Made by a program: the position numbers and the translations under genes. A DNA stretch of 64,000 bases, taken from assembly GCA_052387235.1 (NCBI GenBank), contig JBQTJJ010000001.1, forward strand, positions 7,581-71,580, given 5' to 3'. The stretch comes from Actinomycetota bacterium. Its GTDB lineage: Bacteria; Actinomycetota; Acidimicrobiia; Acidimicrobiales; GCA-2861595. This document shows, in pieces, positions 33,147 to 55,092 of this stretch; position 1 is the stretch's first letter, and each line of letters begins with the position of its first letter. The notes beneath the pieces are model-generated. The model made no database searches. It was not told the origin of the DNA and saw only the letters and a list, made by a program, of their open reading frames with translations.

Positions 33147-33536
33147 TCACGTGCCGTCGACCGTGGCCTGCCCCGGGTTGGTGATGCTGATCACGCCGCC
33201 CCACGTGCACATGCAGGTGCAGACGTCGGTGAGGGCCGGGGTGCCCCCGATGAGCACGGTGGCGGCGCCGGGCGTCCACGGCGCCGTCGTCACCGGGATG
33301 CACGGCTGGGGCGTCAGCACCCCCGACGCGGCCGACGTGGCCGCCGCCACCTGGGGGTTGGACGGCGTGGTGCACATCCCGAACGGGGCCAGGTTGGCCA
33401 TGGGCACGCTGTCCGTGACGACCGCTCCAGGCGGGCCGCCGGCGTTCGTGCGCTTGGCGGGAGGCACGGTGAGGGTGGACGGGTTGGTACCCATCGTGCA
33501 GGCCACCATCGCACCGGACACGACCAGCTTGGGCAC
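33147..33536 (-). CDS. DUF4280 (PAAR-like) spike-tip protein
   Basis: MPKLVVSGAMVACTMGT.PSTL.V ... PFGMCT ... C.P.T..PW.PG ... GG.PAL ... C.C..GG.I is the DUF4280 pattern. GTG start preceded by GGAAGGGAGG. Confidence 0.8.
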   Translation of the reverse strand: MPKLVVSGAMVACTMGTNPSTLTVPPAKRTNAGGPPGAVVTDSVPMANLAPFGMCTTPSNPQVAAATSAASGVLTPQPCIPVTTAPWTPGAATVLIGGTPALTDVCTCMCTWGGVISITNPGQATVDGT

Positions 33537-33559
33537 GGTCGGAGCCTCCCTTCCTGGGG

Positions 33560-34726
33560 TCAGCGATGGACGAGCTGGGTGAGGCGCACGAGTTGGGCCA
33601 CATCCCGGCCCGACGGGGTCACCGTGGGGGGGACCACCAGGAAGGCGGTCGCGGCAGATGGGCCGCCCCCCACCTCCCCCACCGCCTGCCGGGGCCCGGG
33701 GGCGTCGCCCGGCATCACCAGCATCTGCGTGGAGAAGGATCCGGTGGCGTCGGCGGTGACGGCCTTCTCGCCCAGGCCGGGCAGCCAGCGCAGGGTGACG
33801 GCGGCGTTGGCCGGGTAGCCGGTCCCGTTCAGCTGGGTCACGAAGCCCGGCGGCCCGATGCAGGGCGAGCAGGTCAGCACCACCACGCCCGGCACGGTGG
33901 GCGGGATGGTGGTGGTCGTGGTGGGGATGGTGCTGTCCGGGGTGGTGGGCCTCGTCGTCGATGACGAGGAGGACGACGACGAGGACGAGCTGCTGCTGCT
34001 ACTACTACTGCTGCTGCTTGACGAGGTGGTGGTGCCAGGCGGCTTGCAGGGGACGTTCCAGTCCAGGCGGGCGCTCGCGCCTCGCTGGTCGCCGGCCCGC
34101 ACCGTGTAGCTGCCGGCCGCCGCCTCGGGCTGGGCGGGGACGGCCCAGCCCGTGACCTGCCAGGTGCCGCTGGCGGTGACCGTGGCCGTGATGCGGGTGA
34201 TCACGGTCTCCAGGCGGTAGAAGACCACCGTCACGATGTTCTGGGCCGTCGCCCCCCCCTGCCAGAGCGTCCCCGAGGCGGTGACCGACCAGGTGCCCGG
34301 CGCGGCGGGGCCGCACTGCTCCTCGCCGGTAGCCGCGTACGAGGGCTCGTCGTAGGCCCGCATGTCGGGCACGGACAGGAACGGGGCGCTGGCCGTGACG
34401 TTGAAGCAGGTCGTCCCGCACACCGTCTGGGTGGCCATCACGGTGTAGGTGCCGCCCGCCCGCCGGGCGGGCGCGATCGGGAGGGAGAACATGCCCTGGC
34501 CGTTGGCGGCGGTGCCACCGGCCGGGGCGCCGGCGAAGGTGACGTCGACCTTGCCGTTCGGGGCGAACCCGGTGCCGGTGACGGTGATGGACCATGTGCC
34601 GCTGGTGCCGGCCGGGGCCGACGAAGGGGTGAGGGTGATGGCGGCGCTGCTCTGCGCCGACGCGGCCGGGACCAGGACGGCGCCGGCCAGCAGGGCGGCG
34701 GCGACCAGGACCCGGGCCCGGCTCAT
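33560..34726 (-). CDS. Secreted multi-domain (Ig/IPT-like) protein with 22-Ser linker
   Basis: Sec signal MSRARVLVAAALLAGAVLVPAASA. Repeated beta-rich segments such as ITLTPSSAPAGTSGTWSITVTGTGF. ATG 34726 overlaps the upstream stop (ATGA). Confidence 0.65.
   Translation of the reverse strand: MSRARVLVAAALLAGAVLVPAASAQSSAAITLTPSSAPAGTSGTWSITVTGTGFAPNGKVDVTFAGAPAGGTAANGQGMFSLPIAPARRAGGTYTVMATQTVCGTTCFNVTASAPFLSVPDMRAYDEPSYAATGEEQCGPAAPGTWSVTASGTLWQGGATAQNIVTVVFYRLETVITRITATVTASGTWQVTGWAVPAQPEAAAGSYTVRAGDQRGASARLDWNVPCKPPGTTTSSSSSSSSSSSSSSSSSSSSSSTTRPTTPDSTIPTTTTTIPPTVPGVVVLTCSPCIGPPGFVTQLNGTGYPANAAVTLRWLPGLGEKAVTADATGSFSTQMLVMPGDAPGPRQAVGEVGGGPSAATAFLVVPPTVTPSGRDVAQLVRLTQLVHR
33959..34024 (-). 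repeat. Coding homopolymer: 22 consecutive Ser codons, flanked by Thr/Pro-rich linker
   Basis: Mixed TCG/TCA/AGC/AGT/TCC codons, read directly from the reverse complement. Confidence 0.9.
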
Positions 34727-35997
34727 GTCCCGATGGTCTTCACGAACCCCGCGAGGTAGACGGCAGTTGTGCAGGCCGGGCTGGCGCACTCGACGTGGAG
34801 CGTGACCTTGGTTCCTGGGGACACGATGACGGGTGACACGAAGTGGTAGTCCAAGTCCCGGAAGTTGGCCAGGTTGAGGCGAAGCAGGACCCGGTCACCC
34901 CGCTTCAATTCCACGATACCGCTGTCCCCGGCGGGGTTCTGGAGCACGATGTCGGTGAGCGAGAAGACCTGCTTGTCGCCCACCGTGACGGCATCCTCGA
35001 GCACCCCGGGCCCGTTCACGGCCAGCCTGGCGTCGAACGGGTTCCCGAGGTCCGTCTCCACCTCCTCGGCGCCGGCCTGGGCGCCGGGCGGCGTGCCGCC
35101 CGAGTCCCCGCCCCCGGTGTCGATCTGGGGTGCGGCCGCGCCGACCTGCTTGGCCAGGTCCTGCAGGGCTTCCTCGGTCTGCTCCAGGGGCTCCTCCACC
35201 GCCTCCTTCGCCGCCGACTCCACGGTCGGCTTGAGCAGGGTGAACCACAGGATGACCAGCAGGAGCAGGAGGGCCAGCACGGCCAGGAGGACCTTCCAGA
35301 ACCAGCTGGGCAGGCGGGGCTCTTGGAGATAGGAGCCGTCGACGGTGATCGGCGCGGCGCCGTCCGCCTCCACCGACACCTGGAACGGCAGCGTCTTCGG
35401 CCGCCCCCGCCAGAACGTCTTGAGCGGGCGGACCACGACCTTGGAGAACGTGGCGGTGTCGGGCTCGGCCACCAGCGCAGGGGGCCCGAACGAGAAGCGG
35501 AGCAGGTCGGCCGGGTCGGCGGCGGTGAGCACGGCGTTGACGCGGGTGTTGCCCCGGTTGTCGAGGGCCAGCTCGTGGCGCCCGACCCGGCCGCCGTGGG
35601 AAGTCCGCGGAAGCAGCTCGGCCGAGACGTCGACGAAACCGCCGACCTCGAGGGTGCCCTCCTCCACCATCCCGCCGGCCGGGTCCTCCTTGGACGACAC
35701 CTTGACCGCGAAGGGGATGGCGCCGGACCGGGCCTCCGCCGATCGGGGCACGGTGAAGCGGATGTGGGCGACGCCCTCTGCACCGGGGAACAGCGACAGG
35801 CTGGGTGGGTCGGCGGTGGCCCAGGCGGCGGCGTCGCCGAGGATCTCGAAGGTGAACTGGTCCACGACGGTGCCGGTGTTGCGGAGGCGGACGTCGACGA
35901 CGACGGTCCCTCCGGGCTCGACCTGCAGCGCCGAAGACGAGAGGGAGGCGGTCGCGCCCACGGCCCCGCAACATACGCCCGGGACCTGCGCCGTCAA
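34723..35997 (-). CDS. Bitopic membrane protein: N-terminal Ig/CARDB-like domains, one TM, C-terminal beta-rich domain
   Basis: No signal peptide. LQVEPGGTVVVDVRLRNTGTVVDQFTFEILG resembles CARDB/NEW3-type Ig folds. TM helix WFWKVLLAVLALLLLLVILWFTLL sits at about aa 235-258. Start is TTG 35997 or GTG 35961. Confidence 0.65.
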   Translation of the reverse strand: MTAQVPGVCCGAVGATASLSSSALQVEPGGTVVVDVRLRNTGTVVDQFTFEILGDAAAWATADPPSLSLFPGAEGVAHIRFTVPRSAEARSGAIPFAVKVSSKEDPAGGMVEEGTLEVGGFVDVSAELLPRTSHGGRVGRHELALDNRGNTRVNAVLTAADPADLLRFSFGPPALVAEPDTATFSKVVVRPLKTFWRGRPKTLPFQVSVEADGAAPITVDGSYLQEPRLPSWFWKVLLAVLALLLLLVILWFTLLKPTVESAAKEAVEEPLEQTEEALQDLAKQVGAAAPQIDTGGGDSGGTPPGAQAGAEEVETDLGNPFDARLAVNGPGVLEDAVTVGDKQVFSLTDIVLQNPAGDSGIVELKRGDRVLLRLNLANFRDLDYHFVSPVIVSPGTKVTLHVECASPACTTAVYLAGFVKTIGT

Positions 35998-36155
35998 AGG
36001 GCCCCGGGGAAGCCACCGGGGCAGCTCGCACTGCCCGTTCGGGTGACCTTCGCGGGAGGCCCGTTCGGGCCGTCCCGTGTGGAGCGCGCGTAGAGCCGTT
36101 GCGGAGGGGACCGTGCAAGAGTGCGGGCCCGGCGGGGGAAGGAGCAGGAACGAAA

Positions 36156-36782
36156 GTGGCCGATCGCATCCCCGTGTTCGTCTATGCCGCGGACCCGATC
36201 TCCCAGGCCGGGCTGGTGGCGCAGCTCCGCAGCCGGCCGGAGGTGACCGTCGTGGCCGCGGGCGACGTGGACACCGCCGTGGTGGCCATCGTCCTCTGCG
36301 ACGAGATCGACGACGAGGCCCTCAAGGCGGCCCGGGCCGTACAGCGCAACGGCTGTCCCAAGCTGGTGCTGGTGGCCACCCGCCTCGACGACGCCGGCCT
36401 CCTCCGGGCCGCGGAGACCGGCGCCAGCGGCCTCTTGCGCCGGAGCGAGGCCTCGCCCGAGCGCCTGGTGACGTGCGTCCGGTCGGCCCTGGCCGGCGAC
36501 GGGGCCGTCCCGCCCGACCTGCTGGGCCGGCTGCTCGACCAGGTGGGCCGCCTGCAGCGCCAGGTGCTGGCACCCCGCGGCCTCACCATGAGCGGCATGG
36601 CCGAGCGGGAGCTGGAGGTGCTCCGGCTCGTGGCCGACGGCCTCGACACGGCCGAGATCGCCAGCCGGCTCTCCTACTCGGAGCGCACGGTGAAGAACGT
36701 CATCCACGACATCACGTCCCGCTTCCAGCTGCGCAACCGGGCCCACGCCGTCGCCTACGCCGTGCGGGAGGGCCTCATCTGA
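36156..36782 (+). CDS. LuxR-family regulator with receiver-like N-terminal domain (atypical), no adjacent kinase
   Basis: GTG 36156 after GGGGGAAGGAGCAGG. C-terminal ERELEVLRLVADGLDTAEIASRLSYSERTVKNVI HTH. The N-terminal domain has only one Asp in the usual DD position and no clear conserved Lys. Confidence 0.8.
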   Translation: MADRIPVFVYAADPISQAGLVAQLRSRPEVTVVAAGDVDTAVVAIVLCDEIDDEALKAARAVQRNGCPKLVLVATRLDDAGLLRAAETGASGLLRRSEASPERLVTCVRSALAGDGAVPPDLLGRLLDQVGRLQRQVLAPRGLTMSGMAERELEVLRLVADGLDTAEIASRLSYSERTVKNVIHDITSRFQLRNRAHAVAYAVREGLI

Positions 36783-36803
36783 CCGGCTGACCCCGCCGGC
36801 GCC

Positions 36804-36946: not shown

Positions 36947-37696
36947 GTGATCCACGACGTGGACGAGTCGCTCCGCCGGTTGCTGCGCCGGGACGCCCTC
37001 AACGGCTCCGACGTGGAGGTGGCGTTCGACGCGCCCACCAAGGAGTGGGCCGCGTCCCGGAACACGCCCAGCGTCGACGTCTACCTGTACGACATCCGCG
37101 AGAACATGCGCCGGCGGGACGTGATGTACGAGGAGGTCCGGGACGAGGACGGGCGGGTCCTCGCCCGCCGCCCGCCGCCCCGGCGCTTCGACCTCTCCTA
37201 CCTCCTCACCGCCTGGACGCAGCGGCCCGAGGACGAGCACCGCCTCCTGGCCGCCTGCCTGGGTTGCTTCCTGCGCTACGAGGTCCTCCCCGAGGAGGTG
37301 CTGGCCGGCGCCCTGGCCGACCAGGACCGGCCCGCCCACGTGCACATCGCCCTCCCACCGGCCGAGGACCGCAACATCTCCGACGTGTGGTCGGCGCTCG
37401 GGGGCGAGCTGAAGCCGTCCCTCGACCTGGTGGTGACCGCGCCGTTCGTGACGGGCCGCTCGGTGGACGTGGGCGCCCCGGTGCTGGAGGGACCGCTGCT
37501 GCGCATGCGGGGCGACGGCGTGGGGGAGGCGGCCGGCGCCCCGACCGTGACCGCCGCCAGGCCCGGCGCCGGCGGCCGGCGGCCCCGGGCCCCGGCCCGG
37601 CAGAAGCGGGCCCTGGCCGAGGAGCTGGTGCAGGGTGCCAAGGGCGAGGACCAGCCCGGGCGCAGCTTCTGGCTCAAGCAGCTGGAGTCGCCGTGA
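36947..37696 (+). CDS. CIS tail terminator/cap protein (DUF4255, Afp16/Pvc16-like)
   Basis: MIHDVDESLRRLLRRD ... VEVAFDAPTKEW ... PSVDVYLYDIREN ... DLSYLLTAW is the DUF4255 signature. GTG start. Confidence 0.85.
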   Translation: MIHDVDESLRRLLRRDALNGSDVEVAFDAPTKEWAASRNTPSVDVYLYDIRENMRRRDVMYEEVRDEDGRVLARRPPPRRFDLSYLLTAWTQRPEDEHRLLAACLGCFLRYEVLPEEVLAGALADQDRPAHVHIALPPAEDRNISDVWSALGGELKPSLDLVVTAPFVTGRSVDVGAPVLEGPLLRMRGDGVGEAAGAPTVTAARPGAGGRRPRAPARQKRALAEELVQGAKGEDQPGRSFWLKQLESP

Positions 37697-39810
37697 GCGG
37701 CCCCGGGAGCTCGCCCGTGCGGCCCTCGCCCTCGACAGCGCCGGGACGCAACGGCGGCCCGGTGCCGGCCGGGGCCGACCCGTCGCTGGCCCAGCTGCTG
37801 GCCCGGCTGGCCGCCGTGGAGGCCCGGGTGCGCGAGGAGGTGGGCCGGCGGCGGGCGCGCGACGCGGCCCCCGACGACCGCTTCCGCGGCCTCTACATCT
37901 CCGAGGCCCAGGTCGACGAGCTGCTGTCGGGGCCCCGCCCCCGGCCGGCCGGCCGGACCGCAGCGGCGACGCCGCCACCGGGGAGCCGCGACCGGGCCGG
38001 CGCCGGGCCGACCCGGCTGGAGCGCCTGGCCGGCGCCTTCGCCCTCGACGACGTGGACCTCGACCTGGTCGTCGTCGCCCTGGCGCCAGACCTCGACCCC
38101 CGCTTCGAGCGGCTGTACGGCTACCTCCACGACGACGTGACCAGGCGGCGGGCCAGCACCGGGCTGGCCCTGGAGCTGTGCGGTCTCGGGCTGGCGTCGG
38201 CCGAGCGCCGCCGCCTGGGCGAGGCCGGGGCGCTGTGCCGGGGCGGCGTCCTGGTGGTGGGCGAGCCCGAGCGACCCTTCCCCACCCGCTCCCTGCGCGT
38301 GCCCGACCGGGTCGCCCTCCACCTCCTGGGCGACCCCACGCCGGAGCCGTCGCTGGCGGGGCTCGTCATGACCACGGCCCCCCTCGCCAGCCGGGCGTCG
38401 TCCGATCTGGCCCGCGCCCTGGCCGCCGGGACCCGGCTCGCGTACCTGCGGGAGCGCCCCGGTGCGTCGGGCCACGCCACCGCCGCGGCCGCCTTCGCGG
38501 CTGCGGGGTGGCCGGCCGTCGTCCTGGACCTGCGCCGGCTGGCCCCCGGCGCCGACGCCGCGGTCATGGCCGCCACCGCGGTGAGGGAGGCGCGCCTGCT
38601 CGGCGCCGGCCTGGTGGCCGGCCCGGTCGAGGGGCTGGCCGAGCGGGACGTGGCCGCCCTGCGCACCATGGCCGACGTCACCTGGCCGGTGGTGCTGGTG
38701 GGGGGCCGGGGCTGGGACCCGGGGTGGTCGGCCGACGTGCCGCTGCTCCTGGATGCGCCGGCGCCGGCGCCGTCCCAGCGCGCCTCGCTGTGGCTGGCGG
38801 CCCTGTCCGGCGCGGGGGCGGAGGCCGTCGACGCGGCCGCGGCCACCACCCACTTCACCCTCTCGCCCGACCAGGTGTGGCGGGCGACGGTGACGGCCCG
38901 GCTGCGGGCCGAGGCCGAGGGCCGACCGCTGGGCGCCGGCGACCTGGGGCACGGCGCCCTGGCCCAGAACGGCGCCGGCCTGGAGCGGCTGGCCCGGCGC
39001 GTCGAGCCGGAGGTCGGCTGGGACGACCTGGTGCTGCCGGCGCCGGTGCTGCACCAGCTGCGGGAGCTCACCGTCCGGGCCCGCCTGGGCGACACCGTGT
39101 TCGGCGACTGGGGCCTGGGCCGTGGCCACCGGGGCCACCGCAGCCTCAGCGCCCTGTTCGCCGGGCCGTCGGGCGTCGGCAAGACGATGGCCGCCGAGGT
39201 GGTGGCCGGCGACCTGGGGCTCGACATGTACGCCATCGACCTGGCCACCGTCGTCGACAAGTACATCGGGGAGACGGAGAAGAACCTCGACCGCATCTTC
39301 ACCGAGGCGGAGCGGGTGAACGGGGTGATCTTCTTCGACGAGGCCGACGCCCTGTTCGGCAAGCGCTCCGAGGTCAAGGACGCCAGGGACCGCTACGCCA
39401 ACGTGGAGGTGGCCTACCTGCTCCAGCGGCTGGAGGCGTTCACCGGCATCGCCGTGCTCGCGACCAACCTGCGCAACAACGTGGACGAGGCCTTCGCCCG
39501 CCGCCTCGACGCGGTGGTGGACTTCCCGCTGCCCGAGGAGCCCGAGCGGCTCCGGCTCTGGGAGCACTGCCTGGGCCCGCTGGTGCCGAGGGCGCCCGAC
39601 CTGGACCTGGCCTTCATGGCCCGCTCCTTCAGCCTCTCGGGCGGCAACATCCGCAACGTGACCGTGGCCGCCGCCTTCAGCGCGGCGAGCCGCAGGGAGG
39701 AGGTCACCATGGCCGATCTGGTCCGGGCCACCCAGCGCGAGTACCGCAAGCTGGGCCGCCTGTGCGTGGAGGCCGAGTTCGGCCCCTGGCTCGAGGTGGT
39801 GGCGCCATGA
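37693..39810 (+). CDS. CIS AAA+ ATPase (Afp15/Pvc15-like)
   Basis: GTG 37693 overlaps the upstream stop. Walker A FAGPSGVGKT, Walker B VIFFDEADALF, ATNL...D.A..RR. Long N-terminal non-ATPase region, as in Afp15-type proteins. Confidence 0.88.
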   Translation: MSGPGSSPVRPSPSTAPGRNGGPVPAGADPSLAQLLARLAAVEARVREEVGRRRARDAAPDDRFRGLYISEAQVDELLSGPRPRPAGRTAAATPPPGSRDRAGAGPTRLERLAGAFALDDVDLDLVVVALAPDLDPRFERLYGYLHDDVTRRRASTGLALELCGLGLASAERRRLGEAGALCRGGVLVVGEPERPFPTRSLRVPDRVALHLLGDPTPEPSLAGLVMTTAPLASRASSDLARALAAGTRLAYLRERPGASGHATAAAAFAAAGWPAVVLDLRRLAPGADAAVMAATAVREARLLGAGLVAGPVEGLAERDVAALRTMADVTWPVVLVGGRGWDPGWSADVPLLLDAPAPAPSQRASLWLAALSGAGAEAVDAAAATTHFTLSPDQVWRATVTARLRAEAEGRPLGAGDLGHGALAQNGAGLERLARRVEPEVGWDDLVLPAPVLHQLRELTVRARLGDTVFGDWGLGRGHRGHRSLSALFAGPSGVGKTMAAEVVAGDLGLDMYAIDLATVVDKYIGETEKNLDRIFTEAERVNGVIFFDEADALFGKRSEVKDARDRYANVEVAYLLQRLEAFTGIAVLATNLRNNVDEAFARRLDAVVDFPLPEEPERLRLWEHCLGPLVPRAPDLDLAFMARSFSLSGGNIRNVTVAAAFSAASRREEVTMADLVRATQREYRKLGRLCVEAEFGPWLEVVAP

Positions 39811-40964
39811 GAGGGCGCGCCCATGTCGAGGCCGAGGAACGGGTCCCGGTCGCCAGGCCGGCGCCCGCGCCGGCCGGCCCCGCCGTCGCGACCGAGCCGG
39901 GCCTGGCCGGCGGCCTCCTCGGCCTCCAGGCCACCGCCGGCAACGCGGCGGTGGGGAGTCTGGTGGAGCGGCGCGGGAGCGGCCCGTGCCCCTGCGGCGG
40001 CAGCGGTGGCGACTGTGCCTGCGAGGCCGGGAGGGGCGACGAGCAGGGGGAGGATCGGGCAGGCGAGGCCCTCGACCCCGGCGCCCGCGCCTTCCTGGAG
40101 GCCCGCTTCGGGCGGGACCTGGGCGACGTGCGGGTCCACACCGGTGCCGGGGCGGCCGCCTCGGCCGAGTCGGCCGGCGCCGAGGCGTACACCACCGGCA
40201 AGGACATCGTGTTCGCCCCGGGCGCCTACCGGCCCGACTCGCCCGAGGGCCGCCACCTGCTGGCCCACGAGGTGGCCCACACCCTCCAGCCCGAGCGCGG
40301 GCCGGCCCCGTCCGGGCCCGTCTCCCGCCCCGGCGACCCGGCCGAGGTGGCCGCGGCCCGGGCCGCCGATGCCGTCGCCGCCGGCGCCGCCCCGGCCCGG
40401 CTCGGCAGCCGGCCGGCCGGGGTGGTGCACCGCCAGGCCGAGGACGAGGAGGCCGCTCCCCAGCCGGTGCCGGACATGAGCGGGACCGGGGAGGTGACCG
40501 AGGTGCAGGCCATGGCCAACATCTCCCTGCCCGGACGGACCGATGCCAGCTTCTCCAGCTCGTTCACGACCCAGGGCGCCACCCGCAGGCGCGGCGAGGG
40601 CGGCTGCGACACCGTCGCCGGGAACATGGTGAACACCTTCACCGTGTCGACCACGGTGACGCTGCCGCCGGTCCCGGACGGGCTCACCGAGTGCCAGGCC
40701 GCCAACGCCCAGCGCTTCATCGACACGATCCTCGCCCCGCACGAGCAGGAGCACGTGGCCCACTTCAACACCTACAACGGGACGTCCACCGTGCCGTTCA
40801 GCCTGACGGTCTGCGCCGGCGACGACCTCCAGGCCATGATCCAGGCCGAGCACGACACGGCCCAGTCCACCCGGCAGGCCGCGGCCCAGGCCCTCAGCGA
40901 CTCCATCGACCCGTTCAACGTCGACGTCGACATCGACGCGGGCTGCGAGGCACCGGCGGAGTGA
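39807..40964 (+). CDS. DUF4157 protein (intact HEVAH) with Cys cluster and unknown C-terminal domain carrying a second HExxH; candidate CIS cargo
   Basis: ATG 39807 overlaps the ATPase stop. LQATAGNAAV ... FLEARFGRDLGDVRVHTG ... AYTTGKDIVFAPG ... LLAHEVAHTLQ matches DUF4157. CPCGGSGGDCAC lies upstream. HEQEH at nt 40740-40754. Confidence 0.8.
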   Translation: MRGRAHVEAEERVPVARPAPAPAGPAVATEPGLAGGLLGLQATAGNAAVGSLVERRGSGPCPCGGSGGDCACEAGRGDEQGEDRAGEALDPGARAFLEARFGRDLGDVRVHTGAGAAASAESAGAEAYTTGKDIVFAPGAYRPDSPEGRHLLAHEVAHTLQPERGPAPSGPVSRPGDPAEVAAARAADAVAAGAAPARLGSRPAGVVHRQAEDEEAAPQPVPDMSGTGEVTEVQAMANISLPGRTDASFSSSFTTQGATRRRGEGGCDTVAGNMVNTFTVSTTVTLPPVPDGLTECQAANAQRFIDTILAPHEQEHVAHFNTYNGTSTVPFSLTVCAGDDLQAMIQAEHDTAQSTRQAAAQALSDSIDPFNVDVDIDAGCEAPAE

Positions 40965-44949: not shown

Positions 44950-45110
44950 CGTACGCGCCCGACCGTCTGTTCGAGGAGGTCGCGTACGTGGCGTACCACT
45001 TCCACTGGCCGCTCGCCGAGATCATGGACCTGGAGCACCCGCTGCGGCGTCGCTTCGTGGAGGAGATCGGCGCCATCAACCGGCGCCTGTCCGAGCACCA
45101 GGGGGCCTGA
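44946..45110 (+). CDS. Small conserved CIS-associated protein (54 aa; not in the supplied ORF track)
   Basis: GTG 44946 overlaps the upstream stop (GTGA). Translation: VTYAPDRLFEEVAYVAYHFHWPLAEIMDLEHPLRRRFVEEIGAINRRLSEHQGA. It resembles the short protein usually encoded here in actinobacterial CIS loci (I believe DUF6760; to be verified). Confidence 0.6.
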   Translation: MTYAPDRLFEEVAYVAYHFHWPLAEIMDLEHPLRRRFVEEIGAINRRLSEHQGA

Positions 45111-47620: not shown

Positions 47621-48055
47621 GTGGCGGCGTCGAAGGACCCGGGCCTGGCCATCCGCTACGAGGTGAAGGTCGACGGCGTGGACCTGGGCGCCTTCACCGA
47701 GTGCGACGGGCTGGCCGGCGAGTACGAGGTCCTCGAGTACCCGGAGGGCGGCAACAACGGCTTCGTCCACCGCCTCCCGGGCCGCCTCAAGCACACCAAC
47801 GTCACGCTGAAGCGGCCCATCGACGCCGAGTCCGGGAAGCTGGCCGCCTGGTTCAGCAGCCTCAAGGACGCGGTGAGCCGCAAGACGGCCTCGATCACCG
47901 TCTACGACGGCAACAAGAAGAAGATCGCGGGCTGGAGCCTGGTGGGGGTCTGGCCGGCCAGGTACAGCGGCCCGAAGCTGTCGTCCACCGACGAGGGCGT
48001 GGCCATCGAGACCCTGGAGCTGGTCCACGACGGCTTCACCCACGAGGGCGGCTGA
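47621..48055 (+). CDS. Second gp19-like tube-family protein (Afp5-like tube initiator)
   Basis: RYEVKVDGVDLGAFTECDGL..EYEV.EY.EGG ... LKHTNVTLKRP is paralogous to 44094-44537. GTG after GGGAGG. Confidence 0.88.
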   Translation: MAASKDPGLAIRYEVKVDGVDLGAFTECDGLAGEYEVLEYPEGGNNGFVHRLPGRLKHTNVTLKRPIDAESGKLAAWFSSLKDAVSRKTASITVYDGNKKKIAGWSLVGVWPARYSGPKLSSTDEGVAIETLELVHDGFTHEGG

Positions 48056-48058: not shown

Positions 48059-48721
48059 GTGCCCGCCCTCGACAAGGCCTACCTGGCGGTGCAGGGATCG
48101 GGCGACCGGCTCGAGTTCGCCTTCAACCCCACCGAGGTCGACCTGGCCAAGTCCTCGCAGTGGAAGGACTCCAAGAACAAGGGCGCCAAGAAGGCGCCAC
48201 CCAAGGAGTTCATCGGCACCAACGCCCGCACGCTGGCCATGGAGCTGCTGTTCGACGGGTGGAACGACGGGAGCGGCGACGTGTCGGCCGCGGTGGAGAA
48301 GCTGTTCACCTGGACCTGCCCCACCGAGGAGTCGCTCAGCAACAACAAGCCGCAGCCGCCCGTGGTGGTCCTGCACTGGGGCGCGACCTCCTACTTCGAG
48401 GTCTACGTCAAGCAGGTCCAGGCCAAGTACACGCTGTTCGACCAGCAGGGCCACCCGGTGCGGGCCACCGTCAAGGTGACCCTGGAGGAGCTGCCCCAGA
48501 ACCCGGCCGCCCAGAACCCGTCCTCGGGCGGCGTACCCGGCCGGCGCACGTACCAGATGACGGCCGGCGACACCCTGCAGTCGGTGGCCTACCGCGAGTA
48601 CCGCCGGCCCCAGTACTGGCGGGCCCTGGCCGAGGTCAACGGCATCGACGACCCGATCCGGGTGCGGCCCGGGACCCAGCTGCTCGTCCCGCCCGCCACC
48701 GAAGCGGCCCGGCTGTCGTAG
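48059..48721 (+). CDS. LysM-domain baseplate/tube-initiator protein (Afp7-like)
   Basis: The N-terminal tube-like half (LEFAFNPTEVDLAKSSQW) and the C-terminal LysM (YQMTAGDTLQSVAYREY..PQYWRALAEVNGIDDP.RVRPGTQLLVP). Confidence 0.85.
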   Translation: MPALDKAYLAVQGSGDRLEFAFNPTEVDLAKSSQWKDSKNKGAKKAPPKEFIGTNARTLAMELLFDGWNDGSGDVSAAVEKLFTWTCPTEESLSNNKPQPPVVVLHWGATSYFEVYVKQVQAKYTLFDQQGHPVRATVKVTLEELPQNPAAQNPSSGGVPGRRTYQMTAGDTLQSVAYREYRRPQYWRALAEVNGIDDPIRVRPGTQLLVPPATEAARLS

Positions 48722-48731: not shown

Positions 48732-50465
48732 GTGCCCGACACCCAGCAGTTCGGAGCCAAGCCGGTGATCGAGATCGACGGCAGCCCCCTGCCATCGAGC
48801 GTGGAGCCGGCCCTGGAGGAGGTGGTGGTGGACGACCACCTCCACCTGCCCGACATGTTCCTGCTGCGGCTGCGCGACGACGGCAAGGACGTGTTCCGGC
48901 AGCTGGCGGTGCGCATCGGCAGCAGGGTCACCATCTCGGCCACCCCCGTCGGCGACGGGCGCCAGGACCCGCTCATCGTGGGCGAGGTCACCGCCCTGGA
49001 GGCCGAGTACGACAAGACCGGGACCCACGCACTGGTACGCGGCTACGACCTGTCCCACCGGCTGTGCCGGGGCCGCAGGACCCAGACCTTCAACGACGTC
49101 ACCGACTCCGACCTGGCCGCCCAGATCGCCGAGGGGGCCGGCCTCGACCTGGGCCACGTCGACGCCACCTCCACCACCTACGAGCACGTGTCCCAGGTGA
49201 ACGTCAACGACTGGGAGTTCCTCAAGGCCCGGGCCCGGGAGATCGGCTACGAGGTTGCGGTGGTGCTGGGCAAGTTCGAGTGGCGGCGCCCCGCCGAGTC
49301 GTCGGCCGGCCCGGGCGAGTCGGGCGTGGAGCCGGGAGAGCCCACCCAGCTGGTGCTGGGCTCCAACCTCGAGTGGTTCCGGCCCCGGGTGACGGCCGGC
49401 GAGCAGGTGAAGGAGGCCCAGGTGCGGGGGTGGGACCCCACCACCAAGCAGAAGGTGGTGGCCACTGCCGCGGCCGCCACGACCAGCGCGTCGGTGGGCC
49501 TGGGGCCGGCCGAGCTGGCCGGCACCTTCGGCAACCCCACCTACGTGTGCGTCGACCTGCCCCTGGCCACCCAGGCCGAGGCCGACGCCGCCGCCGCCGC
49601 CCTCATCGAGCAGATCGGCAGCGTCCACTGCGAGGCCGACGGCGTCGCCCAGGGCAACCCGAAGCTCCGGGCCGGCACGGCCGTGAGCGTGTCGCTGGCG
49701 GGCTGGCCCTACGACGGCCGCTACACCATCACGTCCTCCCGCCACTGCTACAGCCCCGGCGGGTACCGGTCGCACTTCCAGGTGAGCGGGCGCAACGAGC
49801 GCTCCCTGCTGGGCCTGGCCTCCATGGGCGCCACCAAGGGCAACGGCAGCGCGGGCGGGCCGCCCATGTACGGCGTGGTGATCGCCCAGGTCACCGACCT
49901 CGACGACCCCGAGGAGCTGGGCCGGGTCAAGCTGGCCATGCCCTGGCTGTCGGACACGTACGAGTCCTGGTGGGCCCGCGTGGTGCAGCTCGGGGCCGGC
50001 GACCAGCGGGGGGCGGTCTGGCTCCCGGAGGTGGACGACGAGGTGCTCGTGGCCTTCGAGCACGGCGACGTGCGCCGGCCCTACGTCATCGGCAGCCTGT
50101 GGAACGGCGTGGACAGGCCGAACCTGGGCTCGCGCCTGTTCGACCACGGCGCCGTGAAGCGGCGTGGCTTCGTGTCCAAGAAGGGCCACCGCCTGGTGTT
50201 CTTCGACGACGACGGCAAGTCGGGAGTGGCCACCATCACGGCTGACGACGGACTGCGCATCTCGCTCAACCAGACCGAGACGACGATCAAGGTGACCAGC
50301 TCGGGCAAGGTCGAGATCCAGGGCACGGGCGAGGTCTCCATCACGTCCAGCAGCAACGTCACGGTGGAGGCCACCGGCAAGCTCGACCTCAAGGGGTCGG
50401 CCGGCGTCAGCATCGACGGCGGCCCCCAGGTGGCCATCACCGGCGGGGTGGTGAAGCTCAATTGA
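48732..50465 (+). CDS. Spike/baseplate hub protein (gpD + gp5-OB + beta-helix; VgrG/Afp8-like)
   Basis: gpD-like N-terminus. VVIAQVTDLDDPEELGRVKL..PWL ... WARVVQ ... GAVWLPEVDDEVLVAFEHGD.RRPYVIGSLWN. Ends in beta-helical repeats. Confidence 0.9.
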   Translation: MPDTQQFGAKPVIEIDGSPLPSSVEPALEEVVVDDHLHLPDMFLLRLRDDGKDVFRQLAVRIGSRVTISATPVGDGRQDPLIVGEVTALEAEYDKTGTHALVRGYDLSHRLCRGRRTQTFNDVTDSDLAAQIAEGAGLDLGHVDATSTTYEHVSQVNVNDWEFLKARAREIGYEVAVVLGKFEWRRPAESSAGPGESGVEPGEPTQLVLGSNLEWFRPRVTAGEQVKEAQVRGWDPTTKQKVVATAAAATTSASVGLGPAELAGTFGNPTYVCVDLPLATQAEADAAAAALIEQIGSVHCEADGVAQGNPKLRAGTAVSVSLAGWPYDGRYTITSSRHCYSPGGYRSHFQVSGRNERSLLGLASMGATKGNGSAGGPPMYGVVIAQVTDLDDPEELGRVKLAMPWLSDTYESWWARVVQLGAGDQRGAVWLPEVDDEVLVAFEHGDVRRPYVIGSLWNGVDRPNLGSRLFDHGAVKRRGFVSKKGHRLVFFDDDGKSGVATITADDGLRISLNQTETTIKVTSSGKVEIQGTGEVSITSSSNVTVEATGKLDLKGSAGVSIDGGPQVAITGGVVKLN

Positions 50466-50538: not shown

Positions 50539-50931
50539 TTGAGTAGTGAGTTCATTGGCGCGGGGTGGGCCTATCCCGTTCGCACGGACGCGACCGGGGG
50601 CATCGCCCTGGTGTCGGGGGACCGGGAACTGGCCGAGAGCATCCGGCTCATCCTGGGCACGGCCTACGGCGACCGGCCCATGCGGCCCGAGTTCGGCTGC
50701 GCCATCCACGACTTCGTGTTCTCCCCCGCCGACACCGGGATGGCCGGCCTCATCGCCTACGAGGTCCAGGCCTCGCTGGCCCGCTGGGAGCCCCGCATCG
50801 TGGTGCAGGGGGTGGACGTGAGCTTCGACCCGGACCGGCCCGTCGTCTACATCGACCTGCGCTACTCCACCAGCGACGCCAACGACCCCCGCAACCTCGT
50901 CTTCCCCTTCTACTACCTGCCGGAGGAGTGA
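50539..50931 (+). CDS. Baseplate wedge protein gp25/GPW-like (Afp9-like)
   Basis: GAGWAYPV ... ESIRLILGTAYGDRPMRPEFGC.IHDFVF is the GPW_gp25 signature. TTG start after GGGGAGAG. Confidence 0.88.
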   Translation: MSSEFIGAGWAYPVRTDATGGIALVSGDRELAESIRLILGTAYGDRPMRPEFGCAIHDFVFSPADTGMAGLIAYEVQASLARWEPRIVVQGVDVSFDPDRPVVYIDLRYSTSDANDPRNLVFPFYYLPEE

Positions 50932-50932
50932 G

Positions 50933-52873
50933 ATGGCGCTCCCCGCCCCCAACCTCGACGACCGCCGCTTCCAGGACCTCGTCGACGACTGCAAGCGGCT
51001 GGTGCAGCAGCGGTGCCCCGAGTGGACCGACCACAACGTCCACGACCCCGGGGTCACGCTTCTCGAGACCTTCGCCTGGCTGGCCGACCAGCTCCTCTAC
51101 CGGCTCAACCGGGTGCCGGACAAGAACTACGTGAAGTTCCTGGAGCTGGTGGGCGTGCGCCTGTTCCCGCCCAACGCGGCCCGGGCCGGCGTCACCTTCT
51201 GGCTGTCGGCGCCGCGGCCCGACACCGTCCGCATCCCGTCGGGCACGCGGGTGGCCACGCCCCGCGCCGGCTCCGAGGAGCTGGTGGCCTTCACGACCCT
51301 GGACGACGTCGACGTCGTCCCCTGCCGGGTCGCCCACGTCCTGTCCACCGTGGCCGAGGGGGCCTACCGCCACCACGACGACGCCCTCGGGCTGGAGCAG
51401 GAGTTCGCCTGCTTCGACCAGGTCCCCAAACCCGGCGACAGCCTGCTGGTCGGCCTGGACGACGCCGTCCCGTCCTGCGCCGTGGTGGTGCGCTTCGACG
51501 CGCGCATCGAAGGCATAGGCGTCGACCCCGACCGGCCGCCGCTGGCGTGGGAGGCGTGGGACGGCGAGGGCTGGGCCGCCTGCCAGCTGGACACCGACAC
51601 CACCGGCGGCATCAACCGGGCCGGCGACGTCGTGCTCCACGTGCCGCCCAGCCACACCACGGCCATCGTCGACCGGCTCCGGGCCGGGTGGCTGCGGGCC
51701 CGGGTGCTGGAGGCAGAGGACGACCAGCCCGCCTACAGCGCCTCGCCGTCGGTGCAGCGCCTGTCGGCGTTCACCATCGGAGCCACCACGCCGGCTGTCA
51801 ACGCCGAGGTGGTGGAGGACGAGGTGCTCGGGTTCTCCGACGGCACGCCCGGGCAGTGCTTCCGGGTGAGCCGGCTGCCCATCGTCCCGGTGGGCGACCC
51901 CGTGGTGGTCGAGGTGGCGGGCGACGACTGGGAGCCGTGGGAGGAGGTCGAGGACTGGGCGTCGAGCGGGCCCGACGACGCCCGCTTCGTGGTCGACCGT
52001 GTCAGCGGTGAGGTGCGCTTCGGCCCGGCCGTGCGCCAGCCCGACGGCACCGTGACCTCCTACGGCCGGGTCCCGCCCAAGGGCGCGGCCGTGCGCATCC
52101 GCTCCTACCGCACCGGCGGAGGCCAGCGGGGCAACGTGGCCCGGCGCAGCCTCACCGTGCTCAAGTCCTCGATCCCGTTCGTGGCGCGCGTCGAGAACCG
52201 GTCCGCGGCCTCGGGCGGCCGGGACGGCGAGACGGTGGGGAACGCCAAGGAGCGGGGGCCCATCACCCTTCGGTCGAGGGGCCGGGCCGTCACGGCCGAG
52301 GACTTCGAGTCCATCGCCGGCCAGGCCGCGCTGGAGGTTGCCCGGACCCGCTGCACGCCGGTCACCGACGGCGACGGCGGGAGCGGCGTGCGCGTGCTGA
52401 TCGTCCCCCACGCCACCGACGACCGGGGCCGCCTCTCGTTCGGTCAGATGGTGCCGGCCGACGAGACCTACCAGAAGGTGGCCGCCGCCCTGGACGAGCG
52501 CCGCATCGTGGGCACGCGGGTGGTGGTGGAGCCGCCCGAGTACATGGGCGTCACCGTGGTGGCCCGCCTGCGGCCCCACCCGTCGGCCAACCAGGCCCGC
52601 CTCCGCGAGGCCGCCCTGGAGGCGCTGTTCGGCTACTTCCACCCGCTGCGGGGCGGACCCGACGGGGATGGTTGGCCGTTCGGCCGGCCCGTCCACGTGG
52701 GCGAGGTCTACGCCGTGCTCCAGGGCCTGCCCGGGCTCGGCATCATCGAGGACGCCCGCCTGTTCACCGCCAACCCGGCCACCATCGAGCGGGGCCGCGA
52801 CGCCGTGCCGCGCATCGACCTGGAGCCCAACCAGCTCGTCTTCTCCGTGGACCACCAGGTGGTCCTCCGGTGA
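50933..52873 (+). CDS. Baseplate J-like protein (gp6-like, Afp11-like)
   Basis: LPAPNLDDRRFQDLVDD....Q.RCPEWTDHNVHDPGVTLLE.FAW..D.L.YRLN..P is the typical N-terminus of the putative baseplate assembly protein family. 646 aa. Confidence 0.88.
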   Translation: MALPAPNLDDRRFQDLVDDCKRLVQQRCPEWTDHNVHDPGVTLLETFAWLADQLLYRLNRVPDKNYVKFLELVGVRLFPPNAARAGVTFWLSAPRPDTVRIPSGTRVATPRAGSEELVAFTTLDDVDVVPCRVAHVLSTVAEGAYRHHDDALGLEQEFACFDQVPKPGDSLLVGLDDAVPSCAVVVRFDARIEGIGVDPDRPPLAWEAWDGEGWAACQLDTDTTGGINRAGDVVLHVPPSHTTAIVDRLRAGWLRARVLEAEDDQPAYSASPSVQRLSAFTIGATTPAVNAEVVEDEVLGFSDGTPGQCFRVSRLPIVPVGDPVVVEVAGDDWEPWEEVEDWASSGPDDARFVVDRVSGEVRFGPAVRQPDGTVTSYGRVPPKGAAVRIRSYRTGGGQRGNVARRSLTVLKSSIPFVARVENRSAASGGRDGETVGNAKERGPITLRSRGRAVTAEDFESIAGQAALEVARTRCTPVTDGDGGSGVRVLIVPHATDDRGRLSFGQMVPADETYQKVAAALDERRIVGTRVVVEPPEYMGVTVVARLRPHPSANQARLREAALEALFGYFHPLRGGPDGDGWPFGRPVHVGEVYAVLQGLPGLGIIEDARLFTANPATIERGRDAVPRIDLEPNQLVFSVDHQVVLR

Positions 52874-52925
52874 CGGCCGGGGTGGGTACGATCGTGGCCG
52901 CGGCGGCCGGGAGGGGGTCGATGGC

Positions 52926-53468
52926 GTGCGAGGGCTGATCGAGGGCCTGGCCAGCCCCCACCCGCTCGAACCCATGCTGCCCCCCATGTTGCGGGGCGAG
53001 GACTTCCTGGAGCGCTTCACCGGTGCCCTCGACGATGTGCTGGCACCGGCCTTGTGCGCCCTCGACAACCTGCCCGCCTACCTCGACCCGGTGCTGGCGC
53101 CGCCCGACTTCCTGGCCTGGCTCGGCAGCTGGTTGGGGATGGACCTCGACGACGACTGGCCGCTCGACCGGCGCCGCACCATGGTCGCCCACGCCGCCGG
53201 TCTGTACGAGCGGCGCGGGACGGTGTCCGGACTGGCCGACCTGGTGGCCCTGTACACGGGGGCGGGGCCGGAGATCGTGGAGGGCGGCGGGGTCTCGTGG
53301 TCGGCCACACCGGGCGGCAGCCTCCCGGGCACGGGGTCCCCGCTCGTCCTGGTACGGGCCCGCTTCGCGGGCGACCCGCCAACCGACACCGACCTGGCCC
53401 GTATCGACGGGCTGGTGGCGGCGGCCAAGCCGGCCCATCTCCAGCACACCGTGGAGGTCCTGCCGTGA
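52926..53468 (+). CDS. Phage tail protein I-like baseplate protein (P2 gpI/Afp12-like)
   Basis: LPPMLRGEDFLERF...LD.VLAP....LDNL.AYLDP..AP.DFL.WL..WLG..LD..W ... YE.RGT..GL pattern. GTG 52926 after GGGAGGGGG. The longer listed ORF overlaps the previous gene. Confidence 0.8.
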   Translation: MRGLIEGLASPHPLEPMLPPMLRGEDFLERFTGALDDVLAPALCALDNLPAYLDPVLAPPDFLAWLGSWLGMDLDDDWPLDRRRTMVAHAAGLYERRGTVSGLADLVALYTGAGPEIVEGGGVSWSATPGGSLPGTGSPLVLVRARFAGDPPTDTDLARIDGLVAAAKPAHLQHTVEVLP

Positions 53469-53487
53469 ACGAGAGGGCTGGCGGCCG

Positions 53488-55092
53488 GTGATCATCTGCG
53501 AGGAGTGCGGCAACCAGAACGACTCCACCGACACCTTCTGCGGGTCGTGCGGCGCCTTCCTGGAATGGCAGGGCCAGCGAGTCGAGGAGCCGGCCCCGGA
53601 ACCGGAGCCCGAGGTGGAGGAGACGGCCGAGGAAGCGGCCCGGCCGGGGATCGTGCAGCGGGTCAAGACGGCCATCGGCATCGAGGACCAGCCCGGCGGG
53701 GGCGGTGGGCCCGCCGCAGCCGGTGGGGCCGGGCCCGGCACCGACGAGGCGGTCGAAGCCGAAGAGGCCCGCCGGCTGGCCGCGGCCGAGCGGGCCGGCG
53801 CGGAGGAGGCCGCCGAGCGGGCCCGGCGGGAGGCGGCAGAGGCCCGGGCCGAGGCGGAGCGGGCCGAGCGACTGGCCCGGGAGCAGGCCGAGGCCGCGGC
53901 CCGGGCCCAGCGCGAGGCGGAGGCCCGGGCCCAGCGCGAGCACGCGGCCGGGGCCCAGGCCGAGACCGAGGCGGCCCGCCGGGAGGCGGAGGCGGAGGCG
54001 GCCCGCCGGGAGGCCGAGGCGGAGGCGGAGGCGGCCCGCCGGCGGGCCGAGGAGGTGGCCGGCTCCACCGCCGCGGCCGAGGCGGCTGCGGAGCGGGCCA
54101 GGGCCGAGGAGGCCAGGCGGGAGGAGGCGGCCCGCCGGGCCGCGGCCATGGTGGCCCAGCCCAGACAGGCGCCCACTCCCCCGTCTCCACCGGCGCCGGC
54201 GGCGGTACGGCCGACCGAGCAGCGCCAGCGGCCCGCCCCCCGCCAGCCGGCCGCCCCCGCCCCGGTGGTCAAGCCGGGCGACCTCATCTGCGGGCAGTGC
54301 GGCGAGGGCAACGACCCGGCCCGGAACTTCTGCCGGCGCTGCGGCCACACCCTGGCCACCGCCCTGGTGGCCAGGGTGCCGTGGTACCGCCGCGTGTTCT
54401 CGCGCCGGAAGAAGGCGGTCCCTGCCGGCGCCCGTCCCGGCCGGGCCGGAGGCGCGGTCGCCGCAACGACCGGCGGGCGGGGCCGCCGCGGTGCCGTCCG
54501 CGACGCCAAGATGGCCGGGCGCAAGGCCAAGTCGGTCTACAACAAGTTTCGCAGGGTGGCCGCCCTGCTGGTGATCCTCGGCGTGGGCCTGGCCTTCCTC
54601 GGTCCCTTCCGGGAGCCGGCCAACCGCGCCTACCAGTCGGTCCGGCGGGTCATCAAGCCCGAGTTCGAACCGGTGCGCCCCGTCGCCGCCGTCGCCTCCA
54701 GCTCAGCCCCGGGCCGTGATCCCACCGCCGTCATCGACGGCATCAAGAACACCTTCTGGGCCGAGGGCGCCCCCGGTCCCGGCGACAGGCAGACCCTCAC
54801 CGTCACCTTCTCGGAGCCCACCGACCTCGACAAGTTCGGGATCATCCCGGGGGCGTCGGAGAACCCGGCCCAGTTCGTGGCCCAGCCCCGGCCCCGGACC
54901 CTGCATCTCGTGTTCGACGGCACCACTCCGAGTGCCAAGGACGTCGCGGTCAAGGACTCGGCCAAATTCCAGTCCTTCGACCTGAAGGCCAAGGGCGTCA
55001 CCAGCGTGCTGGTGGAGATCGTGTCGGTCCACGCCAGCACGGGCGGCGAGGACTGCGCCATCACGGAGCTGGAGTTCTTCCGGAAGAAGTGA
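53488..55092 (+). CDS. Zinc-ribbon x2 / Glu-Ala-Arg coiled coil / TM / discoidin-like (glycan-binding type) protein
   Basis: ICEECGNQNDSTDTFCGSCGAFL and ICGQCGEGNDPARNFCRRCGHTL ribbons. TM helix VAALLVILGVGLAFLGPF. C-terminal DGIKNTFWAEG ... ITELEFF resembles F5/8-type-C/NADase-type glycan-binding domains. GTG 53488 is 20 nt after the gpI-like gene. Confidence 0.75.
   Translation: MIICEECGNQNDSTDTFCGSCGAFLEWQGQRVEEPAPEPEPEVEETAEEAARPGIVQRVKTAIGIEDQPGGGGGPAAAGGAGPGTDEAVEAEEARRLAAAERAGAEEAAERARREAAEARAEAERAERLAREQAEAAARAQREAEARAQREHAAGAQAETEAARREAEAEAARREAEAEAEAARRRAEEVAGSTAAAEAAAERARAEEARREEAARRAAAMVAQPRQAPTPPSPPAPAAVRPTEQRQRPAPRQPAAPAPVVKPGDLICGQCGEGNDPARNFCRRCGHTLATALVARVPWYRRVFSRRKKAVPAGARPGRAGGAVAATTGGRGRRGAVRDAKMAGRKAKSVYNKFRRVAALLVILGVGLAFLGPFREPANRAYQSVRRVIKPEFEPVRPVAAVASSSAPGRDPTAVIDGIKNTFWAEGAPGPGDRQTLTVTFSEPTDLDKFGIIPGASENPAQFVAQPRPRTLHLVFDGTTPSAKDVAVKDSAKFQSFDLKAKGVTSVLVEIVSVHASTGGEDCAITELEFFRKK
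53741..54150 (+). repeat. In-frame Glu/Ala/Arg-rich imperfect tandem repeats (coiled-coil coding)
   Basis: ARAQREAEARAQRE and EAARREAEAEAARREAEAEAEAARRRAE units are visible in both the DNA and the protein. Confidence 0.8.

Follow-up and report, generated by a model that had tools for sequence, protein, structure and literature searches.

A probable Streptomyces-like type IId contractile injection system, with a CisA-family membrane protein, in an Acidimicrobiales contig

Cytoplasmic localisation, CisA-dependent contraction and a role in cell death have been shown for the contractile injection systems (CIS) of Streptomyces (PMC10066040, PMC10020575, PMC12237407), which the literature places in subtype IId of the extracellular CIS (eCIS). 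In CIS-Sc of S. coelicolor (SCO4242-4263) and in the near-identical SLP of S. lividans, the structural genes follow the order Cis16, 15, 2, 1a, 1b, 7, 8, 9, 11, 12, no Afp13 is present and a CisA-type adaptor is encoded after the baseplate genes, along with Sco4256-type proteins, DUF4157 proteins upstream of the sheath and LuxR-type regulators. CisA (Sco4242) has been described as carrying a Cys-rich Zn site before its transmembrane (TM) segment and a sugar-binding C-terminal domain of about 150 amino acids (aa); it is located in the membrane and is absent from the solved CIS-Sc particle. Here we describe a locus of the same composition and structural gene order in a chromosomal stretch of 64,000 nucleotides, called the window hereafter, from an uncultured high-GC Actinomycetota bacterium of the order Acidimicrobiales (GenBank assembly GCA_052387235.1, contig JBQTJJ010000001.1, positions 7,581 to 71,580). 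The locus occupies an island of 24.8 kb and 22 genes (33147-57985), and on its match scores and gene order, taken with the subtype given in the literature, it is probably a complete type IId CIS of the CIS-Sc/SLP kind, whose mechanism would be read by analogy with Streptomyces.

Genes in the window were called by third-position GC, open reading frame (ORF) lists being noisy at 70-79% G+C, and the called genes, including nearly all of those outside the island, were scanned with Pfam, NCBIfam or PHROGs. The structural proteins were compared with all PDB sequences, and for every one of them the best match was a chain of the CIS-Sc cryo-electron microscopy models. The sheath Cis2 aligned with 8bky/9gtp at 666 bits and 62% identity over 509 positions, the alignment beginning at residue 1 once the start of the gene was moved to 42507 (512 aa). 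Cis11 matched 9gtp_1K over its full length with 718 bits and Cis8 matched residues 9-590 of 9gtr_q with 335 bits, followed by Cis16 (9gts, 194 bits), Cis7 (9gtp_P, 146 bits), Cis12 (9gtp_E, 140 bits), Cis9 (9gtp_V, 123 bits) and Cis1b (9gtp_a, 107 bits). The AAA+ ATPase has an N-terminal winged-helix domain and is 43% identical to the ATPase of a locus in S. clavuligerus. Cis1a, 1b, 2, 7, 8, 9, 11, 12, 15 and 16 are thus all found in one locus, which completes the type IId core list, and the Pfam E-values of the island components, from 1e-13 to 1e-45, show that the pattern is not due to chance. The cap, AAA+ ATPase, sheath, two gp19-type tube proteins, gp25, Baseplate_J and gpI-like protein named in the original prediction were all recovered at their places with strong Pfam support. 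Two of its labels had to be adjusted: the protein called a gpD/VgrG-like spike matched Phage_base_V and Cis8, and YQBQ-like in its N-terminal part, with no Phage_GPD match as such, and the protein called a LysM protein is a CIS_tube member in which the LysM match stayed below threshold (19.4 bits for a cutoff of 20.9).

The gene order was also compared with Streptomyces loci, as had been proposed, and it agreed with that of type IId loci on plasmids. A tblastn search of plasmids recovered megaplasmid loci of Streptomycetaceae, in S. clavuligerus (NZ_CP065235, locus L082) and Kitasatospora (NZ_CP108248, locus L081), with a sheath identity of 55-63% and a near-identical annotated gene order; both have CisA-like, Sco4256-like and BTAD genes and the same motif in the tape-measure slot, whereas their accessory genes are placed differently. 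The features of the island are the following (coordinates in the window, strand, assignment).

33147-33536 (-): DUF4280 PAAR-like protein, 129 aa, presumed spike tip (Pfam E 7e-33)
33560-34726 (-): secreted Ig-like protein, 388 aa (Big_6)
34723-35961 (-): Sco4256-type bitopic membrane protein, 412 aa (AlphaFold2 model, homologues)
35970-36069 (no strand): divergent control region, with a promoter-like site and the GCCCGTTCGGG copies
36174-36782 (+): LuxR/GerE-family regulator, 202 aa (GerE E 6e-13)
36947-37696 (+): cap or tail terminator Cis16 (Pvc16_N, DUF4255, E 1.5e-45)
37693-39810 (+): AAA+ ATPase Cis15 (Pfam AAA, WHD)
39807-40964 (+): first DUF4157/eCIS_core protein, with a C-terminal PHExxH domain
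41014-42381 (+): second DUF4157/eCIS_core protein (E 1e-20; alternative start 41077)
42507-44045 (+): contractile sheath Cis2, 512 aa (Phage_sheath_1 and 1C)
44094-44537 (+): inner tube Cis1a (Phage_T4_gp19 E 4e-31)
44542-45110 (+): two small coupled genes, for a 135-aa protein (phrog_508 E 8.5e-5) and a 54-aa DUF6760 protein (E 3e-13)
45118-47616 (+): Pro/Ala/Gly-rich 832-aa protein in the tape-measure slot (eCIS_core at residues 605-680)
47621-48055 (+): tube initiator Cis1b (gp19 E 1.5e-33)
48059-48721 (+): CIS_tube/LysM hub protein Cis7 (CIS_tube E 2e-25)
48732-50465 (+): VgrG-like spike Cis8 (Phage_base_V E 4e-27)
50539-50931 (+): gp25-like sheath initiator Cis9 (GPW_gp25 E 4e-20)
50933-52873 (+): baseplate wedge protein J, Cis11 (Baseplate_J; full-length match to 9gtp_1K)
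52926-53468 (+): gpI-like baseplate wedge protein Cis12 (Tail_P2_I E 5e-13)
53488-55092 (+): CisA-family bitopic membrane protein, 534 aa (Zn ribbons, TM segment, NADase_discoid)
55061-57985 (-): convergent regulator of 974 aa (NTPase, OmpR-type DNA-binding domain, BTAD)

The minus-strand operon starts with the 412-aa gene, continues with the 388-aa gene and ends with the DUF4280 gene, which confirms that the latter lies on the strand opposite to the sheath. The plus-strand train runs in the listed order from the LuxR/GerE regulator to the 534-aa protein, and the gene of the 974-aa regulator is convergent with its end. The largest unassigned gap within the island is at most 212 bp. Besides that of the sheath, two starts were revised: the gp25-like gene probably begins at 50539, on the basis of the homologue in locus L083, which has 130 aa, and the second DUF4157 gene probably at 41014, where a GAGGAG ribosome-binding site precedes an ATG and where the homologue in locus L085 has 462 aa. 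L083 and L085, two soil-metagenome contigs from one sample, each carry a near-identical half of the island with a protein identity of 76-94%, and their flanks depart from that of the window directly past the DUF4280 gene at one end and directly past the BTAD regulator at the other. Since synteny breaks directly beyond both end genes, we took 33147-57985 as the unit, the right end being set at 57985 by the convergent regulator, which accompanies the locus in L083. No integrase, tRNA or repeat marks the borders at 33147 and 57985, and a scan for intrinsic terminators found none. The only Rfam match in the window was a tRNA gene (5008-5081, minus strand, 63 bits), 28 kb from the island.

The original prediction had counted two bitopic membrane proteins, and hydropathy indeed placed one TM segment in the 412-aa protein (224-242) and one in the 534-aa protein (356-374). 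On sequence grounds the 534-aa protein, which lies in the fibre slot after the gpI-like Cis12, is a CisA-family adaptor, SCO4242 being compared by its published description and the homologues by alignment. It consists of a Zn ribbon, a Glu/Arg/Ala-rich repeat spacer, a second Zn ribbon, the TM segment and a C-terminal NADase-type discoidin domain, which passes the NCBIfam model NADase_discoid with 84 bits for a cutoff of 38. The Kitasatospora protein of the same slot is 35% identical over the Zn ribbon, TM segment and C-terminal domain (2e-48), with the N-terminal Zn ribbon aligned as well, and that of S. clavuligerus is 25% identical (1e-13). Sheath relatives number at least 579 among the GTDB species representatives, and the best 80 of these, at 65-76% sheath identity, served as the set of related loci; a CisA-like N-terminus follows gpI in 19 of the 35 loci of this set in which its presence could be tested. 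The homologue listing of Casu 2023 gives S. clavuligerus as positive for Sco4242 and Sco4256-58, and the eLife BLAST sheet tabulates CisA homologues for non-mycelial actinomycetes such as Cellulomonas. The region between the two Zn ribbons, in the presumed cytoplasmic part, contains 27-nt (9-aa) Glu/Arg/Ala-rich tandem repeats (53766-54139), which may act as a spacer, perhaps a helical one.

The 412-aa protein is of the Sco4256 type, SCO4256 itself being compared here too by its published description, which gives a PapD-like N-terminal domain, one TM segment and a C-terminal domain that varies and which the architecture of the 412-aa protein matches. Its AlphaFold2 model (mean confidence score, pLDDT, 88) showed two N-terminal beta-sandwiches, the TM helix, a disordered linker and a C-terminal beta-sandwich. 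The N-terminal sandwiches are PapD/Ig-like, with the SPD-2/ASH domains of CEP192 and the pilus chaperones FimC/CsuC as fold neighbours, which agrees with what HHpred gave for Sco4256 domain 1 in the literature. Homologues are encoded in the loci of S. clavuligerus (annotated 'hydrolase', 36% identity, 3e-41) and Kitasatospora (41% identity, 1e-60); there are more than 1000 relatives, and 22 of the 50 related loci with enough upstream sequence have the gene, mostly divergent from the LuxR gene. Because neither bitopic protein has a signal peptide, both would be oriented N-in/C-out, and the distribution of charges flanking the TM segment of the 412-aa protein agrees with this topology. Its N-terminal sandwiches would then be cytoplasmic and its C-terminal sandwich extracytoplasmic. 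The Sco4256-like protein of S. clavuligerus (L082, 11396-13075) ends in PG_binding_1 and the C-terminal domain of Sco4257/58 is a ricin domain, so that the C-terminal domains of the bitopic proteins appear to be of glycan- or wall-binding types within the family. Sco4256-type proteins are required in Streptomyces for the cell-death phenotype and for the density in the tube lumen. We observe that an N-in/C-out topology together with wall- or glycan-binding ends fits a membrane partner no less well than the 'lumen cargo' of the literature.

The gene of the 388-aa protein starts within the end of the 412-aa gene (4-bp overlap). Its product has a signal-peptide-like N-terminus, a Big_6 Ig domain and a poly-Ser/Thr/Pro linker, which bears out the secreted Ig-like protein proposed earlier. 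The pair is kept in L085 and L086, and beyond these close relatives the 388-aa protein found only weak partial matches, in 6 of the 80 loci. It is the sole accessory restricted to this lineage. The further suggestion that the accessory genes make the locus a distinct variant was not supported, as the same accessories are described or present in the type IId loci of Streptomycetaceae and recur in many of the 80 loci. The DUF4280 gene has the same place in L085 and adjoins the LuxR gene in L015, L045 and L057. S. venezuelae has a PAAR-type tip, Cis10, and S. coelicolor has none; the DUF4280 protein presumably stands in for Cis10 as the spike tip. The island differs from CIS-Sc and SLP in having this tip, in having a single Sco4256-type gene, placed in a divergent operon with an Ig-like protein and ending in a small beta-sandwich instead of ricin, in having its DUF4157 genes on the strand of the sheath, and in the presence of eCIS_core in its slot protein.

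Three DUF4157 proteins had been predicted, and eCIS_core, the current Pfam name of DUF4157, was found in all three (39807-40964, 41077-42381 with the start as called, and 45118-47616). For the S. lividans particle, effector pairs (Sle2/Sle1) have been described in such a setting, with DUF4157 proteins just upstream of the sheath (PMC13277306), and the two upstream proteins of the island occupy the position of the Sle2-type effector partners. The C-terminal domain of the first one (40389-40961, about 150 aa) has an invariant PHExxH and four invariant Cys residues. This domain is mobile, with 26 homologues, mostly on other N-termini, and was modelled by AlphaFold2 with a pLDDT of 89. A fold search of the PDB gave no significant neighbour (best E 0.04), and matches to pore-formers were regarded as noise. 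The first DUF4157 protein is a candidate cargo or effector. No small immunity-like gene follows either of the upstream DUF4157 genes, the gaps being of 112 and 125 bp.

By homology, the locus encodes baseplate, DUF4280 tip, tube, sheath, cap and Cis15 ATPase, and the predicted membrane topology elements are present. By analogy with Streptomyces, the particle would assemble free in the cytoplasm, its tube being built on the baseplate around the 832-aa slot protein with the help of the two small chaperone-like proteins, and the DUF4157 proteins would be cargo or cargo adaptors. The CisA-family protein would span the membrane, the Zn-ribbon N-terminus facing the cytoplasm and the glycan-binding domain outside, and might recruit the baseplate to the cell's own membrane and license contraction under envelope stress. 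The Sco4256-type protein would take part either as effector or as another partner in the membrane. Firing would then damage the envelope of the producer, as a form of regulated cell death, and not a distant target. As far as the sequence allows, the earlier reading of a fibre-less CIS that acts in the cytoplasm or at the membrane, and not as a released particle or a prophage tail, is supported by CIS-Sc as the nearest solved structure, by the CisA-family protein in the fibre slot and by the missing lysis and fibre genes.

Several points weigh against this picture. Localisation, firing direction and function would all be transferred from Streptomyces at 40-62% identity. The host, unlike S. coelicolor and S. 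lividans, is probably not a sporulating mycelial organism, and a developmental role may not apply to it. There is no TTA codon in any island gene, unlike in most Streptomyces CIS loci, which are under bldA control, and such control was rejected here. The match of Cis1a (8bl4_v) reached 54 bits, far below the other parts. The runner-up among solved sheaths, with 374 bits, is that of the haloarchaeal type VI secretion system (T6SS) 9EZM of Halogeometricum, a membrane-anchored, outward-firing system that secretes DUF4157 toxins, and Vladimirov et al. read Sco4242 as the fibre of a released particle. The last two points each correspond to an alternative.

The haloarchaeal system (Halogeometricum borinquense) resembles the island in being cytoplasmic and fibre-less, with DUF4157 proteins and a membrane partner. 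The main alternative is a T6SS-like weapon, anchored to the cytoplasmic membrane by the CisA-like and/or Sco4256-type proteins, that would fire outward through the wall and deliver DUF4157 toxins to neighbouring cells. The rank of 9EZM among the solved sheaths, the two DUF4157 proteins upstream of the sheath, one with an HExxH domain that is mobile between N-termini, and the glycan- or wall-binding-type extracytoplasmic domains of both bitopic proteins speak for it. We nevertheless consider it unlikely, since every part of the island is far more similar to its CIS-Sc counterpart than to the haloarchaeal one (666 compared with 374 bits for the sheath). Moreover, contact-dependent outward killing with immunity pairs was shown for the archaeal system whereas nothing immunity-like follows the DUF4157 genes here, and the particles of S. 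coelicolor float freely with no outward killing found. A canonical T6SS was rejected, as Pfam detected neither a TssJLM-type membrane complex nor a ClpV ATPase among the window genes, the ATPase being of the Cis15 type. The Tme-type CIS of S. davawensis, in which a large DUF4157 protein is likewise encoded immediately upstream of the baseplate genes, was also rejected as a model: Tme has an N-terminal DUF4157 domain, TM helices, coiled coils and an EndA-like nuclease, whereas the 832-aa protein has its DUF4157 domain near the C-terminus (605-680), none of the rest and no tape-measure match, and the S. davawensis system belongs to a different sheath clade.

A second alternative is an Afp/PVC-like extracellular CIS, released by lysis, in which the protein encoded downstream of the baseplate would be the fibre. 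Afp, PVC, AlgoCIS and the thylakoid-anchored CIS of Anabaena share with the island the core Afp1-16-type parts save Afp6, Afp13 and the typical Afp14. Purified particles contained Sco4242 and Sco4256 in the work of Vladimirov et al., who proposed a fibre and a toxin, and the C-terminal domain of the 534-aa protein has a glycan-binding discoidin fold. In this candidate fibre a strong TM segment is not accompanied by a signal peptide, which would place its binding domain outside the cell while the baseplate is inside, and CisA is a membrane protein missing from the solved particle. Whereas the Afp, PVC, AlgoCIS and Anabaena systems comprise Afp13 fibres, typical Afp14 tape measures and release, Pfam and PHROGs detected no Afp13-type fibre and no typical Afp14 family in any island gene. 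The scans of the island genes and of nearly all other genes called in the 64-kb window with the three family collections likewise agreed with the earlier report that capsid or head, portal, terminase, integrase, holin, endolysin and fibre families are missing. The sheaths of these systems (Pvc2, All3325 and Afp3 among them) score 122-180 bits against that of the island, and a released eCIS is distinctly unlikely. The tail module of a defective prophage or an R-type tailocin, which the P2-like order of sheath, tube, chaperone, tape-measure slot, hub and wedge might suggest, is most improbable and is effectively refuted by the absence of packaging genes, with no head, portal, terminase, integrase, lysis cassette or fibre in 64 kb, and by the presence of the CIS hallmarks Cis15 AAA+ ATPase, Cis16 cap and eCIS_core proteins, while the pyocin sheath scores 59 bits and the nearest tRNA is 28 kb away.

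A CIS of the CIS-Sc/SLP kind thus remains our preferred reading, and the island is a further member of the already known type IId family, which would not surprise a specialist. The closest sheath among the GTDB species representatives is 76% identical and comes from a metagenome-assembled genome (MAG) of Acidimicrobiia. The MAGs of the best 80 sheath relatives are labelled mainly Acidimicrobiia, other Actinomycetota, Chloroflexota and Dormibacterota, and the core genes are kept throughout their loci; two island proteins have 'Acidimicrobiales bacterium' MAG proteins as their nearest named relatives (89% and 78% identity). The locus is a well-delimited example, with a full accessory set, of a Streptomyces-type cytoplasmic CIS in a different actinobacterial class, and lends support to a wide distribution of CisA-dependent, fibre-less CIS among soil Actinomycetota and neighbouring phyla. 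It also prompts one to ask what such CIS do in organisms that do not share the life cycle of Streptomyces: should the MAGs of Acidimicrobiia, Chloroflexota and Dormibacterota with full, CisA-containing IId sets be unicellular, as is probable, this role would not be bound to mycelial development.

In phage P2 the tail genes follow the order FI-FII-E/E'-T-U-D, and the island mirrors it with sheath, tube, 135-aa protein, DUF6760 protein, 832-aa protein, tube initiator, hub and spike. The 135-aa protein weakly matched phrog_508, a 'tail assembly chaperone', and 1233 representative clusters match it in turn. Together with the 54-aa DUF6760 protein, for which a full-text literature search returned no paper, it is found in 78-79 of the 80 loci at 58-84% identity. 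After the sheath, these two are among the most conserved proteins of the locus, across phyla, and neither has a solved structure. Where a single slot ORF could be extracted (54 related loci), the slot protein is rich in Pro, Ala, Gly and Ser in 45 loci, with a length of 416-1030 aa and a median of 779. Near the N-terminus the slot proteins share the conserved motifs WPF and W..LPP; a low-complexity spacer follows whose length varies (416-1383 aa for the proteins overall), and the C-terminus carries a conserved helix motif, (D/E)LxxLAxxLYxxIRxRLRxELxxDRERxG, which also ends those of S. clavuligerus (L082, 18705-22856, up to 1383 aa) and Kitasatospora (L081, 18551-22282, 1243 aa). The domain eCIS_core is present in 20 of 41 members, and the 832-aa protein has both the domain and the helix motif. 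No TM segment was found in the 832-aa protein by hydropathy and no tape-measure family match with Pfam or PHROGs, and its PDB comparison gave only insignificant matches to hexapeptide repeats (LpxA-like, left-handed beta-helix; E at least 0.07). Within this protein, Gly-rich repeats follow one another in tandem with a period of 18 nt, or 6 aa (46423-46709).

Type IId clusters have been reported to be without a typical tape measure and yet to give particles of uniform length, and the slot-protein family is not described in the Streptomyces CIS literature that was text-searched for tape measure or slot genes. We tentatively suggest, as a lead and not as a result, that the family could be the length ruler or lumen protein of type IId, an extended chain and not a coiled coil, that doubles as a cargo adaptor; we hold this to be possible but rather doubtful. 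The family and its two small chaperone-like partners are targets for explaining the fixed particle length of type IId, and the family is the only element of the locus that might repay further work.

Both ends of the plus-strand train adjoin regulators. The LuxR/GerE protein has a receiver-like N-terminus, is 45% identical to the response regulator of the S. clavuligerus locus and occurs in 39 of the 80 loci, mostly divergent from the 412-aa gene; LuxR-type regulators are also known in or beside Streptomyces loci. The 974-aa regulator has an N-terminal MalT/LAL-like NTPase followed by an OmpR-type DNA-binding domain and a C-terminal BTAD, a domain order that is unusual, and its gene overlaps that of the CisA-like protein by 32 bp at the 3' end. 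It adjoins the CisA-like gene in L083 too, where the further flank differs, and it is found in 11 of the 80 loci; in S. clavuligerus, too, BTAD regulators are encoded within the locus and next to it. The divergent control region contains a promoter-like TTGACG-N16-TATGTT (35997-35970, minus strand) whose end lies 9 nt upstream of the GTG of the 412-aa gene; the site is kept in L085. Two exact copies of GCCCGTTCGGG at 36033 and 36059, 26 bp apart, lie in the divergent promoter; the first is kept in L085 as the palindrome CCCGATCGGG and the second is not, and the repeat was not seen in distant relatives. As an operator it was rejected, sites with at most one mismatch not being enriched in the window (12 for 7.8 expected) and only the two exact copies standing out, and it is a weak lead.

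The genes of the window outside the island have ordinary cellular functions, among them glycosyltransferases and ABC transporters. In the left region (11249-30540), trehalose and glycogen genes code for TreZ, an alpha-amylase-family protein, an isoamylase/GlgX-type enzyme and a GT20 trehalose-phosphate synthase, and a two-component system, a hemerythrin and an L,D-transpeptidase are also encoded there. The right flank (58157-63974) resembles part of a siderophore/non-ribosomal peptide synthetase cluster, with a Peripla_BP_2 binding protein, two ABC exporter fusions, an MbtH protein and a thioesterase.

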